Shown here: positions 19,053 through 23,979 of the stretch, one piece after another
How the letters are laid out: every line of letters begins with the position of its first letter
Position numbering within the stretch: position 1 is the first letter of the stretch
Origin: an uncultured Chloroflexia bacterium
Lineage (GTDB): Bacteria; Chloroflexota; Limnocylindria; Limnocylindrales; CSP1-4
DNA: 64,000 nucleotides
Assembly: GCA_963746845.1 (NCBI GenBank)
Contig: CAVVCZ010000004.1
Span: 32,001-96,000 of the forward strand
Direction of reading: 5' to 3'
Position numbers and translations under genes: made by a program
Notes under the pieces: generated by a model
What the model saw: the letters and a program-made list of their open reading frames with translations, nothing else
Told to the model about the DNA's origin: nothing
Databases searched by the model: none

Positions 19053-19827
19053 CTAGCGGAAGAGGTCGAAGCTCGCGGGCATCAGCCCGTCCGCGATCGA
19101 GCCCTCCCCGAGGAGCGGGTGGGCGCCCCGGACCACGGCCACGGGCCGCCCGCCGACCTTGCCGAGGGCGAGCTCCGCGGCGGACGCGATCTCGTCGGCC
19201 GAGGCGCGGATCGTCGAACGCATCACCCGCCCGTCGGCGTCGACCGTGCCCCGGAGGTCCTCGATCGGGACGAGGCCGGACACGCCGATCGCGACGTCCG
19301 TGATGCCCCACCGCCAGGGCCGTCCGAACGAGTCGGACACGATCACCGGCACGTCCACCCCGAACCGCTCGCGGATCGCCGCGCGGATCGCCCGCGCCGA
19401 CGCGTCCGGGTCCCGTGGCAGGAGCGTCACGATCGACCCGCTGTCCGGCCCGACGTTCGACGCGTCGACGCCGCCGTTTGCGCACACGAAGCCATGGGGC
19501 GTCTCGGTGATCAGCACGCCGTGCTCCATCCGGACGACGCGGCGCGCCTCGCGCAGCACGACCTCGAGCTGGCGCGGATCGCGGTCCCACTGCTCGGCGA
19601 ACGCGACCGCTTCCGGTCGCGGCTCGATCGTCGTCAGGTCGACGATCGCCCCCTCGGCCTTCGAGACGACCTTCTGGGTGACGACGAGCACGTCGTCGGG
19701 TTGGAGCGGCGGGACGCCCGGCGTGCGTTCGATCGGCGTCGCCGATCAGCCGCCCGAGATCGTCGCCCGGGACGACCTCCGGGATGCCGTCGAGGGCGAT
19801 CGCCTCGACCCGGCCCTCAGCGGACAT
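19053..19827 (-). CDS. cofE: Coenzyme F420-0:L-glutamate ligase (apparent +1 frameshift near 19735)
   Basis: IPEVVPGDDL N-terminus in one frame; VVTQKVVSKAEG, CANGGVDASN and DSFGRPWRWG in another; removing one base joins them. Confidence 0.9.
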
Positions 19828-20458
19828 CGACGGGGCGGAGGCTCGCCTCCGCGAGCAGCAGGTCGTCCGGCGTGTCGATGTCGAGGGTGAGCGGCCCGCC
19901 GAGCTCGACCAGGTCCGCGCCCGCGGCTCGCGCCGCCGCGACATGGGCCGCGTGGCTGTCGCCGCCGTAGCAGGTGTCGATCGCGTCCGGCGGCGCGAGG
20001 AGCAAGGCGTTCGTGCCGCGGCCGTGGCGGTCCGCCACGATCGCGACGAGCGGACGCCGGCCCATCGCCAGCGTCGTCAGCACCGCCGCGATCGCCTCGG
20101 GGGTCACGTCCGGCAGGTCGATCGGCAGGATCAGGACCGCGGTCGCGCCGCCGGCGATCGCCTCCGCGCGCCCCGCGTCGATGCCCCGGTTCAGGCCCAC
20201 GTCCCGCTGCCGGAGTGGCCGCGCCCCGAGCTCCGCGGCCAGACGCCGGACGCCGTCGTCCGGCGTCACGACGAGCGTCTCCGCGATCCCGGGCGTCGCG
20301 ACGCAGGCCGCGATCGTCGTGCGGGCCAGGTGAAGCGTCAGCTCCAGGCGCTCCTCGGCGTCGAGCACCGCACCCAGCCGCGACTTCGCGCCGGTGAGCG
20401 CCCCGACCGGGACGATCGCGACCACCCGGCCGGCGTCGGGGGACTCGGGGTTGGGCAT
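19817..20458 (-). CDS. cofC: 2-phospho-L-lactate/phosphoenolpyruvate guanylyltransferase
   Basis: AKSRL, GLN, DLP, GTNALL and DIDTPDDL motifs; adjacent to cofE. Confidence 0.92.
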   Translation of the reverse strand: MPNPESPDAGRVVAIVPVGALTGAKSRLGAVLDAEERLELTLHLARTTIAACVATPGIAETLVVTPDDGVRRLAAELGARPLRQRDVGLNRGIDAGRAEAIAGGATAVLILPIDLPDVTPEAIAAVLTTLAMGRRPLVAIVADRHGRGTNALLLAPPDAIDTCYGGDSHAAHVAAARAAGADLVELGGPLTLDIDTPDDLLLAEASLRPVDVR

Positions 20459-20485
20459 GCCCGAAATCCTAGAGGATGCCGGCGC

Positions 20486-21106
20486 TCAGGCCCATGACAG
20501 CGTGAGCCAGATCGCCGTCAGCCCGAACACGAGCAGGATCGCGCCCGACAGACGGTTCACCCAGAGCAGGATCGTCGGCGTCAGCCGCGTGCGGAGCCGG
20601 CTCACGGCGAACGTCAGGCCGACCCACCACGTCGCCGACCCGAGGAACACCCCGAGCGTGAGGAGCGCCGCCTCCGCGAAGCTGCCGCCGCTCAGCCCGA
20701 GCCCCGCGAAGATCCCGGCGAACGACAGGATCGTCATCGGGTTCGTCATCGTCAGCCCGTAGATCGACAGGAACGCGCCCGGCAGCCCGGGCCGGTCGCG
20801 GACGGCGGCCTCGGTCGTCGCCGGCGTCGCGACCATCGTCCGGATCGCGAGCCAGACGAGGAACGCCCCACCGACGAGCCCGAGCGCCGGCCGCAGCCCG
20901 ACGAGCACGGACGTGACCGCGGTCAGCCCGAACGCCGCAACTCCGCCGTACGATCCGTCGGCGAGGGCGACGCCCATCCCGGACGCAAGGCCGTAGACCC
21001 GCCCGTGGGCGAGCGTGCGCCGGATCACGAGGATGCTGATCGGCCCGACGGCGGCGGCGATCGTGAGCCCGATCGCGAGGCCGCGGGCGAGGAACGTGGG
21101 ATCCAT
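20486..21106 (-). CDS. LysE family translocator
   Basis: GLAIGLTIAAAVGPISILVIRRTL..GLASGMG..AD; LTMTNPMTILSF; ~6 TM. Confidence 0.92.
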   Translation of the reverse strand: MDPTFLARGLAIGLTIAAAVGPISILVIRRTLAHGRVYGLASGMGVALADGSYGGVAAFGLTAVTSVLVGLRPALGLVGGAFLVWLAIRTMVATPATTEAAVRDRPGLPGAFLSIYGLTMTNPMTILSFAGIFAGLGLSGGSFAEAALLTLGVFLGSATWWVGLTFAVSRLRTRLTPTILLWVNRLSGAILLVFGLTAIWLTLSWA

Positions 21107-21161
21107 GCTGGTGACTCCAGTGTGCGTGGTGCCGCCGGCGGTCGGGGGTCCCCTCGGGCAT

Positions 21162-21189
21162 GAAAAGGCCCCCGGCCGAGCCGAGGGCG
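21162..21189 (-). terminator. Intrinsic terminator (attenuator 3:4 stem) upstream of the LysE gene
   Basis: Minus strand GCCCTCGGC-TCG-GCCGGGGGC followed by CTTTTC. Confidence 0.75.
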
Positions 21190-21227
21190 ATGGACCAGAT
21201 TGCGGGCGCCCGATCGGGCGCGCGTCG

Positions 21228-21299
21228 TCAGGCCAGGCTCACCCTCGTCGAGGGCTGCTGCTGGCTCCGGATCGTGCGAGGCGTCGGGATCGAGTGCAC
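21228..21299 (-). CDS. Putative attenuator leader peptide MHSIPTPRTIRSQQQPSTRVSLA (23 aa)
   Basis: GTG lies 6 nt after the -10 box (leaderless); three consecutive CAG codons; TGA at 21228; not in the ORF track. Confidence 0.7.
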   Translation of the reverse strand: MHSIPTPRTIRSQQQPSTRVSLA

Positions 21300-21305
21300 G
21301 GGCGG

Positions 21306-21334
21306 ACTGTGCCGGGTGCGGATCGGCCTGTCAA
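21306..21334 (-). promoter_or_regulatory. Sigma70-type promoter for the leader/LysE transcript
   Basis: TTGACA (21334-21329), 17 nt, CACAGT (21311-21306). Confidence 0.75.
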
Positions 21335-21370
21335 TTCCCCTCGTATCCTCGCGCCAGGAGGTCCGAGACG

Positions 21371-22147
21371 ATGCAGGAACACCAGCCGTTCACATCCGAC
21401 GCCCCCGGCGGACCCACCGCGCCGCCGACGAGCCCGTTCGATGACCCCAGAACGATGCAGATCCTGTCCACGGAACACTGGAGCCTGCTCGCGACCCGTT
21501 CGCTCAGCTGGAACGAGTCGTTCAGCCGGGCCGGCCTGTTCCTGTCGGTCGTGTCCGCCACCGCGGTGGCGCTGGCCCTCGTCGGCCAGGCGACGGACTT
21601 CGGCGAGCAGTTCCTGGCGTTCGCGCTGGTGATGCTGCCGATCGCGCTGTTCGTGGGGCTGGCGACCTTCACCCGGCTCGACGAGGTCAACAACGAGGAC
21701 ATCGTGTGGGTCGCGGGCATGAACCGGATTCGTCATGCCTATGTCGAGATGAACCCCGCCCTCCTCCCGTACTTCATCACCGGCTGGACCGACGACCCAC
21801 CGGGGCTGGAGAGGACCTTCGGGATCCACCGGCCGGGCAGCGCCGCGGCCCACTGGGTGGTCACGATGCCGGGGATGGTCGCGGTGATCGATGGGGTCCT
21901 CGGCGGCCTCGTCGTCGGGCTCGCCCTGAACGGCTTCGGCGGGATGGCGATGTCCGGCTCGATCGCGGCCGGTCTCGTCGTCGGCGTGCTGATCCCGCTG
22001 GTCCTCGCCCTTCGGAGCCGCAGCTCGATCCGCTGGTTCCTCGGCGCGTTCCGGCCGCAGTTCCCGTCGGATGAGGAGTCCCTGTACGACTGGTCAGCGC
22101 CCATCCGCAGCAGCGGCAAGGACGGTCCCGGCAAGGACGGCGCGTGA
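21371..22147 (+). CDS. Conserved hypothetical membrane protein
   Basis: ILSTEHWSLLATRSLSWNESFSR..GMNRIRHAY; ~4 TM; RBS AGGAGG; 3' end overlaps cofD. Confidence 0.75.
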   Translation: MQEHQPFTSDAPGGPTAPPTSPFDDPRTMQILSTEHWSLLATRSLSWNESFSRAGLFLSVVSATAVALALVGQATDFGEQFLAFALVMLPIALFVGLATFTRLDEVNNEDIVWVAGMNRIRHAYVEMNPALLPYFITGWTDDPPGLERTFGIHRPGSAAAHWVVTMPGMVAVIDGVLGGLVVGLALNGFGGMAMSGSIAAGLVVGVLIPLVLALRSRSSIRWFLGAFRPQFPSDEESLYDWSAPIRSSGKDGPGKDGA

Positions 22148-23050
22148 GTCGTCGTCCGTCATGATCGTGTCGGCGACGACCGCCCGGATCCCGAGGGCCT
22201 CCACGTCCGGGGCGAGCGCGGCGTCGACGGTGTCGAGGACGAAGGTGTCGATCAGCCCGGCGTAGGCGCGGGCGACGCCGAGCGCGGTCGGCTCGTGGCC
22301 GAGGCTGGCGAGCATCCGGTCCGCGGGCCCCTTGAGCGCGCGACCGCCGATGATCCCGCTCACCGCAACGATCCGCGCGCCGCGAGCGCGTGCGGCGTCG
22401 AGGCCCGCACGGATCCCGGGGACCGCGAGGATCGGGCCGACCGAGACGATCGGGTTCGACGGCGCGATGACGACGATCTCCGCCGTCGCGAGCGCCGCCT
22501 CGACCTCCGGCGTCGGGCGCGCACGCTCGATCCCCTCGAACCGGACCTCGCGGACCTCCGGCGCCTGGCGGAGCCGGACGAAGTAGTCCTGGAAGTCGAG
22601 CCAGCCCTCGTCCGTCCGGACCCGGGTCCGGACCGGCTCGTCGGTCATCGGCAGGATCGCCGCCCGGACGCCGAGATGCGTCTGGAGGTCGCGGCAGACC
22701 TCGGTCAGGCGGGCGCCATCGCGCAGACGGGCGGTCCGGACGATGTGCGTGGCGAGGTCCTGGTCGCCGAGCCGGAACCAGCCTTCCTCTCCGTACCGCT
22801 CGAGCGCGCCCATCGTCGCCCACGTGTCGCCGGCCAGCCCCCACCCGAACTCGGGGTTCTCGAGGCCCGCGAGCGTGTACATCACCGTGTCGTGGTCGGC
22901 GCAGACGAGCAGCCCATGGCGCTCGGTGTCGTCGGCGGTGTTCACGACGACGGTCAGCCGATCGCCGAGGATCGCCTGGAGACCCTCCGCGAGCTTCGCG
23001 CCACCGACCCCGCCGGCGAGGCAGACGACGGACCCGGGGCCGGCCCACAT
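22094..23050 (-). CDS. cofD: 2-phospho-L-lactate transferase
   Basis: LAGGVGGAKL, VNTADD, DTVMYTLAG, WFRLGDQD, FQDYFV, PSNPIVS, KGPADRM. Confidence 0.95.
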   Translation of the reverse strand: MWAGPGSVVCLAGGVGGAKLAEGLQAILGDRLTVVVNTADDTERHGLLVCADHDTVMYTLAGLENPEFGWGLAGDTWATMGALERYGEEGWFRLGDQDLATHIVRTARLRDGARLTEVCRDLQTHLGVRAAILPMTDEPVRTRVRTDEGWLDFQDYFVRLRQAPEVREVRFEGIERARPTPEVEAALATAEIVVIAPSNPIVSVGPILAVPGIRAGLDAARARGARIVAVSGIIGGRALKGPADRMLASLGHEPTALGVARAYAGLIDTFVLDTVDAALAPDVEALGIRAVVADTIMTDDDSRAVLAGTVLAAAADGR

Positions 23051-23979
23051 CAGGCCAGCGCGGTCCAGACGTCGGGCATCCGCTCGATCGTCTCGCGGTC
23101 GAACGGCGCCGGCAGTCGGACGATCACGGTCGAGAAGCCGAGGTCGCGATACGGGGCGATCGCCTCGGCGATGAGCGACGGCGGGCCGGCGAGATGCGGC
23201 CCGGCGCCCGCGTTCTCGACGCCGTTGGCGTGATAGCGCTCCAGGGCGGCAGCCTCTGCCGCCGCGACCTCGTCGCGGATGATGATCGGGAAGCTGATCG
23301 TCAGCTCGATCTCGCCCCGGTCGCGCCCGACGGCTTCGCAGTGCCCGTCGAGCGTCGCGAGCTTGCCCGTGACCTCGTCGAGCGTGCCGGTCGTGTTCCA
23401 GGCGTCGGCCCGGAGCGCCACGGTCCGAAGCGTCTTCTGCGGCCCGGAGCCGCCGACGAGGATCGGGAGGTGGGCCTGGACGGGTCGCGGCTCGCACAGC
23501 GCGTCGTGGAACGCGTAGAACCGGCCCTCGTGGTCGACCCGCTCACCGTCGAGGAGCCGGCGCAGGAGCATGACCGCCTCGTCGAGCCGATCGAGCCGCT
23601 CGCCGAACCCGGAGCCCCACGTCTCGAACCCGAACGCCTCGTGCTCGCGCTCGAACCAGGCGCCGCCGATGCCCAGCACCGCCCGGCCGTCGCTGACGTG
23701 GTCGAGCGTCGTCGCCAGCTTCGCCGTCAGCCCGGGGTTGCGGAACGTGTTCGCCCCGACCATCAGCCCGAGCCGGATCCGCGAGCTGAGCGCGCCGACG
23801 GCCGACAGGATCGTCCAGCCCTCGAAGATCGGCTGCTCCCACGGCCCGAAGATCGCGTTCAGGTGGTCCCACGTCCAGACCGAGTCCCAGCCGGCCGCCT
23901 CGGCGGCGAGCGCCGTGTCCCGGAACTCGGGCCAGGTCGTGTGCTGCGACCAGAGCTGGGCACCGAACCGCATCGTCAT
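23050..23979 (-). CDS. LLM class (probably F420-dependent) oxidoreductase
   Basis: DSVWTWDH, FEGWT, NTFRNPG, GRAVLGIGGAWFEREH, ILVGGSG. Confidence 0.9.
   Translation of the reverse strand: MTMRFGAQLWSQHTTWPEFRDTALAAEAAGWDSVWTWDHLNAIFGPWEQPIFEGWTILSAVGALSSRIRLGLMVGANTFRNPGLTAKLATTLDHVSDGRAVLGIGGAWFEREHEAFGFETWGSGFGERLDRLDEAVMLLRRLLDGERVDHEGRFYAFHDALCEPRPVQAHLPILVGGSGPQKTLRTVALRADAWNTTGTLDEVTGKLATLDGHCEAVGRDRGEIELTISFPIIIRDEVAAAEAAALERYHANGVENAGAGPHLAGPPSLIAEAIAPYRDLGFSTVIVRLPAPFDRETIERMPDVWTALA

Follow-up and report, generated by a model that had tools for sequence, protein, structure and literature searches.

The stretch of DNA analyzed here, 64 kb from an uncultured Chloroflexia bacterium (contig CAVVCZ010000004.1 of assembly GCA_963746845.1; hereafter the window), raises the question of how a LysE-family transporter gene, lysE, might be controlled by the DNA directly in front of it. 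The gap of 264 nt separating lysE from a divergent gene holds a whole candidate regulatory element, with promoter-like boxes, a short leader open reading frame (ORF) containing three consecutive glutamine codons, and a terminator-like hairpin. An earlier note on this DNA had interpreted the element as an attenuator. Comparative sequence data supported this interpretation through the ORF itself, its Gln codons, covarying helices, the complementarity of segments 2 and 3, and the folds predicted for a stalled ribosome. We therefore favor, with a probability of about 0.7, ribosome-mediated transcription attenuation of the trp/his type, in which a ribosome would read an apparently leaderless leader ORF and a scarcity of GatCAB-made amide-tRNA would induce a LysE-family exporter.

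A model for the lysE leader

In the proposed model, transcription would begin at or beside the GTG, and a ribosome would translate the 23-codon leader. A ribosome reaching the TGA would cover segment 2, and on its release the outer stem P1 and the 1:2 hairpin would re-form; the 3:4 terminator would then fold, and transcription would end about 55 nt before lysE. A ribosome stalled on the Gln codons would instead mask segment 1, so that segment 2 (GAGGG) could pair with segment 3 (CCCUC). This 2:3 pairing would block the terminator, and lysE would be transcribed. The stall signal would be a shortage of amide aminoacyl-tRNA. The features on which the model is built are listed below, all as minus-strand coordinates in positions of the whole window.

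21334-21329, minus strand: -35 box TTGACA, read from the sequence; the TTGAC box is kept in orthologs
between the -35 box and the -10-like hexamer, minus strand: spacer of 17 nt, read from the sequence
21311-21306, minus strand: -10-like hexamer CACAGT; orthologs keep its A at position 2 and its T at position 6; putative function, from position and conservation
21299-21228, minus strand: leader ORF of 23 codons with GTG start and TGA stop; the GTG lies 6 nt 3' of the -10-like hexamer
21263-21255, minus strand: control codons CAG CAG CAG (Gln 13-15); QQ or QQQ kept in orthologs
21265-21261, minus strand: P1 5' strand GCCAG, overlapping the first Gln codon; covariation
21236-21232, minus strand: P1 3' strand CTGGC, ending one base 5' of the stop codon; covariation
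21255-21241, minus strand: 1:2 hairpin (putative anti-antiterminator), with segment 1 at 21255-21250, a loop, and segment 2 at 21246-21241; covariation
21221-21206, minus strand: middle hairpin of 6 bp with a GATC loop, 3' of the stop codon and 5' of the terminator; it may serve as a pause or spacer hairpin
21188-21163, minus strand: predicted terminator 3:4, with a 9-bp stem at 21188-21168, a 5' arm including segment 3 (21188-21182), and a T tract at 21166-21163
21118-21115, minus strand: lysE Shine-Dalgarno sequence GGAG, conserved as GGAG in orthologous upstream regions
21106-20486, minus strand: lysE, LysE-family (PF01810) transporter of 206 aa; PF01810 E = 5.8e-21

The promoter boxes, the GTG leader with CAG-CAG-CAG, segments 1-4, the CTTTTC motif and the distance to lysE, all described in the earlier note, were found in place. 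P1 and the middle hairpin are two further conserved helices that were missing from it, and P1 encloses the 1:2 hairpin. Segment 3 repeats the sequence of segment 1, and CTTTTC follows the 9-bp GC-rich terminator stem. The lysE ATG at 21106 lies 55 nt past the T tract; in this window the GGAG of lysE is about 45 nt downstream of the terminator hairpin with its T tract.

Selection on the leader ORF and its glutamine codons

For the comparison, 71 distinct leader ORFs were pooled from all loci, with G010 left out; L056, a degenerate variant without a Gln run, stands outside this set. A promoter-proximal ATG or GTG lay 35-40 nt after the TTGAC box in 67 of the 71 leaders, and within the genus the only start codon within 16 nt after the -10-like hexamer was in frame with the stop at 24 of 25 loci. 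Leader length was 22 codons in 33 leaders, 23 in 22, 24 in seven, 21 in four, 20 in two and 26 in one; apart from two shorter leaders of uncertain start, 69 of the 71 thus had 20-26 codons. The stop codon was TGA in 69 leaders and TAG in two (L083, L135). Start, frame and stop were kept together through insertions and deletions, and the N-terminal half of the peptide varied freely, as did the C-terminal residues (V/D, S/G/C, L/P/S, A/V/D). Because both the N-terminal half and the last four residues are variable, the peptide is not conserved as a protein; a sensory leader ORF would be expected to keep its start, frame and stop around a variable peptide in just this way, which argues that the ORF is selected as an ORF. 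The short leader ORF that had been proposed upstream of lysE was thus borne out at the sequence level.

The start codon is located 6-8 nt past the -10-like hexamer, with no room for a Shine-Dalgarno sequence, and the leader mRNA is apparently leaderless; it would begin at the start codon of the sensory ORF. The second residue was His in 43 of the 71 leaders (ATGCAT, ATGCAC or GTGCAC at the 5' end), a bias that either leaderless initiation or the transcription start may impose.

Conservation of the Gln run in LysE orthologs had been named earlier as a check on the attenuator. Directly 5' of segment 1, QQQ was present in 30 leaders and QQ in 33, so that 63 of the 71 keep the run. The codon after QQ encoded R (20 leaders), P (8), G (4) or E (1). 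The Gln codons of the leaders comprised 161 CAG and 4 CAA, near the genome's own ratio. The N-terminal parts of the leaders contained 5 Gln in 585 residues, and Gln makes up 2.4% of the long ORFs of the genome. The Gln pair was also retained in other genera whose flanking P1 strands had switched to other complementary sequences. Arg codons were considered as the sensor and were rejected, because Arg arises by the one-step change of CAG to CGG, partly compensated in P1.

Chance levels were estimated on the single sequence. The whole 3.56-Mb genome contains two frames of at most 60 codons with three consecutive Gln codons, and a terminator-like hairpin follows the leader only; in its long ORFs, QQQ occurs 22 times in 488,146 residues. 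A terminator scan gave two overlapping sites at the leader, compared with a mean of 0.1 in 50 shuffles.

Helices of the leader RNA and stalling in silico

Structure statistics were calculated on 62 model-aligned matches, in an alignment that was fitted to the model and so favors it, and that includes G010 as a row as well as two spurious rows. On this basis 91.5% of cells pair, compared with 33-51% when the partners are slid, and 17 of 28 pairs have changes on both sides, compared with 7.9 ± 1.3 in shuffles (0 of 500 as high). The same covariation outcome was obtained from 32 sequences. Double-sided changes occurred at 5/5 pairs of P1, at 4/6 pairs of the middle hairpin (97.5% of cells paired) and at 4/9 pairs of the terminator (98.9% of cells paired). 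Stem covariation, which had been put forward as a second check, was therefore found in P1, the middle hairpin and the terminator, whereas the 2:3 antiterminator showed none. An RNAalifold fold on a MAFFT alignment had paired CAG with the CUG at the stop with almost no covariation, and was replaced by the covarying P1 and 1:2 model.

Segment 2 pairs with segment 3 in 92.2% of cells, compared with 44-54% when slid. The two 5-nt cores, GAGGG in segment 2 and CCCUC in segment 3, do not vary, which is what a double constraint on these segments would lead one to expect. One clade shows a joint change of segments 1, 2 and 3 that preserves the predicted pairing. Support for the putative antiterminator, consisting of the invariant cores and the coordinated change of this one clade, is limited.

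For the stall model, the ribosomal A site was placed on a chosen Gln codon, the mRNA was masked to +12, and a leader was counted when at least 5 nt of the terminator 5' arm paired with segment 2. With the A site on the first Gln codon, this predicted pairing formed in 63/63 leaders, and one codon later in 34/63. Among the 24 genus sequences, it formed in 24/24 at the first two Gln positions, and at the third position only 3 or 0 pairs were left. Such a drop after the first Gln codons fits the strict keeping of two Gln codons while the third drifts. The full-length minimum free energy (MFE) structure retained the terminator in 22 of 24 sequences.

Asparagine codons and the route of tRNA charging

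Eight leaders lack the Gln pair. Their control windows hold 10 Asn among 56 residues, compared with 1/441 in the other 63 leaders (Fisher 1.5e-9, uncorrected for kinship), and Asn codons are present in 6 of the 8. L109 (QNQ) and L123 (NQ) are further Asn cases. Genome-wide, Asn makes up 1.8% of residues. On a LysE tree of 70 rows, with frames chosen by a motif filter and with L015, L021, L025 and L024 left out, the Asn label needed 6 changes, at least 4 of which were forced by well-supported branches. That Asn codons stand in for a lost Gln pair, in at least 4-6 lineages, is a new finding here. As an aside on codon choice, the rare-codon pair AAT CCG (Asn-Pro) recurs in L026, L094 and L099, Asn-type leaders from two distant clades, and AAT is used only 1.1 times per 1000 codons in the genome of the window (G000).

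In the indirect pathway, GatCAB makes amide aminoacyl-tRNAs by transamidation, with glutamine as the amide donor. In the genome of the window, which is 92% complete, neither glutaminyl-tRNA synthetase (GlnRS; best score 47 bits, cut-off 426) nor asparaginyl-tRNA synthetase (AsnRS; best score 83 bits, cut-off 343) was found, and GatB is present (532 bits). Both Gln-tRNA(Gln) and Asn-tRNA(Asn) should therefore come from GatCAB in this organism. GlnRS was surveyed with TIGR00440 at E <= 1e-30 in 96 genomes, the metagenome-assembled genomes (MAGs) being 60-94% complete, with the following outcome by leader type.

Gln-pair leaders (QQ or QQQ): GlnRS in 3/64 genomes (G016, G176, G372)
Asn-type leaders: GlnRS in 6/8 genomes (in G023 as a fragment at a contig end only, in G365 in two pieces; none found in G007 and G364)
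other leaders without the Gln pair: GlnRS in 1/4 genomes (G368)
no leader: GlnRS in 4/20 genomes (G035, G013, G400, G404)

GlnRS thus differs between genomes with Asn-type and with Gln-pair leaders (Fisher 1.4e-5, uncorrected for kinship). Among the three positive Gln-pair genomes, the GlnRS of G016 is in two pieces with an internal TGA, that of G372 is partial, and that of G176 is intact; the leader of G176 is the only Gln-pair leader with an adjacent Asn. Inside one clade, GlnRS was found in 0/4 genomes with QQG leaders and in 3/3 with QNQ, NQ or QE leaders. AsnRS was above the cut-off in 0/11 genomes searched, and GatB was present in 5/5 GlnRS-bearing genomes searched. On the simplest reading of these data, the control codons appear to follow whichever amide-tRNA still depends on GatCAB. 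The sensed quantity would then probably be the GatCAB-made amide aminoacyl-tRNAs, Gln, or Asn where GlnRS exists, and not glutamine charging as such. The earlier note had suggested that the transporter might export an inhibitor of glutamine synthetase or of an amidotransferase, or import a nitrogen source. More tentatively, the leader may gauge tRNA-dependent transamidation by GatCAB, its Gln codons having repeatedly given way to Asn codons in genomes that acquired GlnRS and in which Asn-tRNA alone would still need GatCAB, and the exporter may remove what blocks that step, for example a glutamine-analogue antimetabolite made by soil competitors or an amino acid that shuts down glutamine synthesis. 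If so, the element would be a ribosome-based sensor of amide-nitrogen transfer, that is, a resistance or homeostasis switch set off by the damage and not by the compound.

Other observations concern the charging enzymes and tRNAs themselves. GlnRS is patchy within one genus (6/29 genomes at E <= 1e-30), suggesting that transfer events added or removed the gene. The split GlnRS of G016, at C2:440-2000, may be a pseudogene or an assembly error. In the genome of the window, ARAGORN reported a tRNA-SeC and also a tRNA whose anticodon has four bases (ccgg) and to which it assigned no amino acid.

Points that weigh against attenuation

Several results weigh against the attenuator interpretation. As to its logic, an exporter induced by amino-acid starvation has no obvious rationale, and the regulated gene is a transporter and not, as in the classical systems, a gene making or charging the sensed amino acid. 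As to the RNA, the 2:3 helix has zero covariation (500/500 shuffles as high); the flanks of segment 3 change from G to A at two columns, where the 3' arm of the terminator compensates and segment 2 does not; and the outer 2:3 pairs are not kept, leaving a core of only 5-6 bp. When the 3' part of the ORF was shuffled, 458 of 1260 sequences (36%), which are GC-rich, still gave the pairing scored in the stall model. The unmasked nascent-RNA MFE already has 2:3 in 7/24 genus sequences and in 19/63 leaders, which implies that the anti-antiterminator depends on folding order. The U tracts are short, with 4 U here, and are poor in orthologs such as L016, L038 and L083. The fold of the whole leader is ordinary (z = -0.45), and 57 of 200 shuffles fold as well.

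As to the ORF and its promoter, 4 of the 71 leaders have no recognized TTGAC box, the 5' start of L030 is not in frame with the stop, and in L109 the stop is displaced. A strict sigma-70 consensus scan called no promoter at the leader, so that the promoter assignment is made because of conservation. The GlnRS rule has exceptions in both directions, namely G176 (intact GlnRS, leader FNGQQ) and G016 (split GlnRS, leader RQQ) on one side, and G007 and G364, with Asn-type leaders and no GlnRS found, on the other. Finally, in Streptomyces coelicolor the presumed control codons of the ilvB leader were mutated and regulation was unchanged, according to PMC1262725, which indicates that leader look-alikes are not always classical attenuators.

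Alternative explanations

Four other explanations were weighed. The terminator might be set by a structured leader RNA, such as a riboswitch or a protein-binding site, with an ORF that is incidental or serves only to unfold the RNA and with CAGCAG as a ligand or protein contact. Riboswitches commonly target exporter genes, P1 as well as the inner, middle and terminator hairpins are conserved with covariation, and CAGCAG sits unpaired in the loop that separates P1 from the inner hairpin. We nevertheless regard this explanation as improbable, since indels have left the start position, the frame and stop function (TGA or TAG) intact, lost CAGCAG is replaced by Asn codons (AAC or AAT) of unlike sequence and not by a similar RNA motif, and the model does not predict a codon replacement that tracks a tRNA-charging enzyme. 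In addition, no Rfam family was credibly matched even at E <= 10; the four matches returned by Rfam 15 for 20900-21600 (E 3.6-9.1) were all far below their gathering scores. The element could also be a general translation-stress or antibiotic-inducible attenuator of the erm/cat/vmlR type, in which a slowed ribosome opens the terminator, the exporter removes the drug, and the Gln codons are not a specific sensor. The architecture is the same as that of drug-inducible leaders before efflux and resistance genes as described in the literature, the regulated gene is an exporter, and the organisms come from soil according to run labels. However, drug-dependent arrest usually needs a conserved nascent peptide, whereas here the peptide varies around the stall site, and Gln retention, Asn replacement and the GlnRS link point to tRNA supply. 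We therefore think a drug-inducible leader unlikely.

A metabolite-sensing arrest peptide of the TnaC/SpeFL type would stall the ribosome near the stop through the nascent peptide and a free small molecule. The invariant stop codon, with its invariant place directly after P1, and the frequent His at the second position (43/71) would suit such a peptide. Against this, the last 8 residues differ between clades (PSTRVGLA, PARARST and GPIRATST endings) and vary within clades, no conserved arrest motif was seen, and a stall at the stop would cover segment 2, favoring termination over read-through; there is thus hardly any likelihood left for this explanation. Alternatively there may be no switch at all, the leader being a gene for a small protein or a small RNA that has a terminator of its own, or else acting as a constitutive insulator, with lysE expressed separately. 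Leader and terminator would indeed yield a discrete RNA of about 135 nt, and 18 of 80 LysE loci manage without the element. This explanation is nonetheless very unlikely, because no conserved promoter-like box was seen between the terminator and lysE, one clade has only about 10 nt between the T tract and the lysE ribosome-binding site, every clade preserves the complementarity of segments 2 and 3, even the one where both changed, and the peptide is not conserved as a protein. Ribosome-mediated attenuation through amide-tRNA supply consequently remains our preferred interpretation.

Distribution of the element

Of the 36 other genomes in the genus, 32 yielded a LysE ortholog, whereas 24 genomes from a second family of the order yielded none. 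In the genus the leader is present in 25 of 29 readable upstream regions (L029, without upstream DNA, falls outside the 29), and it is not found in L012, L017, L023 and L028. A covariance model of the element gave a single match in the window's own genome. Run on sets of 150 further genomes at a time, it gave matches within the same family only. At E <= 0.01 it matched 14 of 151 genomes in the family sample, where three loci were false on reading. In the order sample it matched 21/108 genomes of f1 and 0/42 of f2, and in the class sample no match was obtained in f3 (0/49), f4 (0/50) or f5 (0/1). A scan with one genome per species placed the element directly upstream in 60 of 80 LysE loci; the diverged copies L120 and L123, recognized by eye, are two more, and 18 loci are without it. 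Among the genomes searched, the element is confined to one family of Chloroflexota (Limnocylindria-type MAGs).

Several model matches were discarded: L042-L044 are a coding region and plain terminators, L055 and L057 (genus g7) are ilvB leaders matched through the terminator alone, and two minus-strand matches in L135 and L098 were discarded on reading.

LysE orthologs without the leader comprise L012 (G003), L023 (G031), L017 (G035), L028 (G013) and 16 further loci. The lysE ATG of L012 is immediately preceded by a TTGACA box and a -10-like hexamer, so that its lysE mRNA may well be leaderless; in L017 and L028, lysE directly follows cofD. The same LysE type also occurs in five records catalogued under other phyla, L070 (Verrucomicrobiia), L110 (Saccharimonadales), L131 (Patescibacteria), L133 (Binatia) and L137 (Dormiibacterota), of which L110 and L131 also have the leader. 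These five are probably mis-binned contigs or mislabelled MAGs.

The transporter and its neighborhood

The lysE product matched PF01810 with 75.3 bits (cut-off 25.6) over profile positions 2-189 of 193. In NCBIfam the nearest models were RhtB-type and LysE-type exporters, all below their cut-offs, so that no subfamily was reached. In the window, lysE lies within a cluster for F420 biosynthesis (19053-23500) with the following genes.

19817-20458, minus strand: cofC, following lysE on the same strand after a 27-nt gap
19053-19691, minus strand: cofE, on the same strand as lysE, past cofC
about 22094-23066, minus strand: cofD-like gene upstream of lysE, assigned by eye, without a family match

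In genera g11 and g26 the neighbors of lysE are other than F420 genes and the leader is still with lysE, which argues that the leader belongs to lysE. Regulation of the F420 genes cofC and cofE was accordingly rejected as the primary link of the leader, since elsewhere it stays with lysE alone. The divergent gene (21371-22147, plus strand, 258 aa) has a predicted membrane character and is a conserved neighbor of lysE within the genus; searches of Pfam and NCBIfam gave no match to it.

A soil metatranscriptome contig of 253 nt, from a roughly 95% relative, covers 20991-21242 and so bridges the terminator, with leader ORF on one side of it and lysE on the other. The two soil metatranscriptome runs concerned contain 8% of sampled words; these are contigs only, which do not resolve transcript ends and whose gaps in coverage carry no weight, with identical figures, and probably one data set. 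The bridging contig is a weak hint of read-through, and DNA carry-over is possible.

Comparison with known systems

Leader-peptide attenuation is a textbook mechanism that concerns a handful of amino acids, almost always before genes making or charging them, and it is known mainly in Proteobacteria, Actinobacteria and a few Firmicutes. The lysE leader shares with the trpL, hisL, pheL, leuL, thrL and ilvL attenuators a short ORF with a run of putatively sensed codons, the predicted pairings 1:2, 2:3 and 3:4, a predicted intrinsic terminator, and control codons positioned so that a stalled ribosome would mask segment 1. Unlike them, it has Gln (or Asn) codons, an exporter as target, an apparently leaderless ORF, an extra outer stem and a middle hairpin, and it occurs in Chloroflexota. 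A literature search, with subscription journals and supplements outside it, gave no Gln or Asn leader attenuator, none before a LysE gene and none in Chloroflexota, and glutamine or Gln was absent from the accessible text of PMC2965389 and PMC1262725. Through the leader, the substrate of this widespread type of LysE transporter may become accessible. The link between codon identity and GlnRS is an unusual natural experiment, which ties cis-regulatory codon choice to the route of tRNA charging.

An ilvB-type leader is located in the same genome, outside the window (contig C5, about 231,330-231,660), and the matches in genus g7 (L055, L057) are of this type. Like the lysE leader, it has a short ORF rich in particular amino acids, here the end products, together with a similar GC-rich hairpin and a T tract; unlike it, this predicted leader has Leu, Ile and Val codons and precedes a biosynthetic gene (acetolactate synthase). 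Its presence suggests that the lineage uses leader-peptide control. In Actinobacteria, leader attenuators have been predicted for trp, ilvB and leuS, according to PMC1262725. Closer in form are the mycobacterial polycysteine attenuators, leaderless short ORFs whose structure hides a ribosome-binding site and acts on translation, as stated in the preprint (bioRxiv 10.1101/834739). As described there, they have a leaderless short ORF as first cistron, a codon run for a single amino acid, and a stalled ribosome that remodels the downstream RNA and turns the operon on; the lysE leader would resemble them in these respects. They differ in that the conserved output here is a terminator hairpin with a T tract, the codons are Gln or Asn and not Cys, and the gene is an exporter and not one of cysteine metabolism. 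In the ermCL, mef/msr and vmlR leaders, a stall in the leader ORF likewise opens a terminator or a ribosome-binding site before an export or resistance gene; these need a drug and usually a defined nascent peptide, whereas in the lysE leader codon identity is conserved.

Glutamine is a central signal of nitrogen status. In E. coli, ribosomes stall at glutamine codons under nitrogen starvation, as reported in PMC7858274, citing Li et al. 2018, and to that extent a Gln signal is plausible. The glutamine riboswitch (glnA RNA and Downstream-peptide motif) and the T-box resemble the lysE leader in sensing glutamine or tRNA charging at the RNA level. They differ from it in that the lysE leader has no Rfam match and its sensing would go through the translating ribosome. 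An amide-tRNA sensor read by the ribosome would therefore constitute a nitrogen or antimetabolite route apart from PII, GlnR/NtrC and the glutamine riboswitch.

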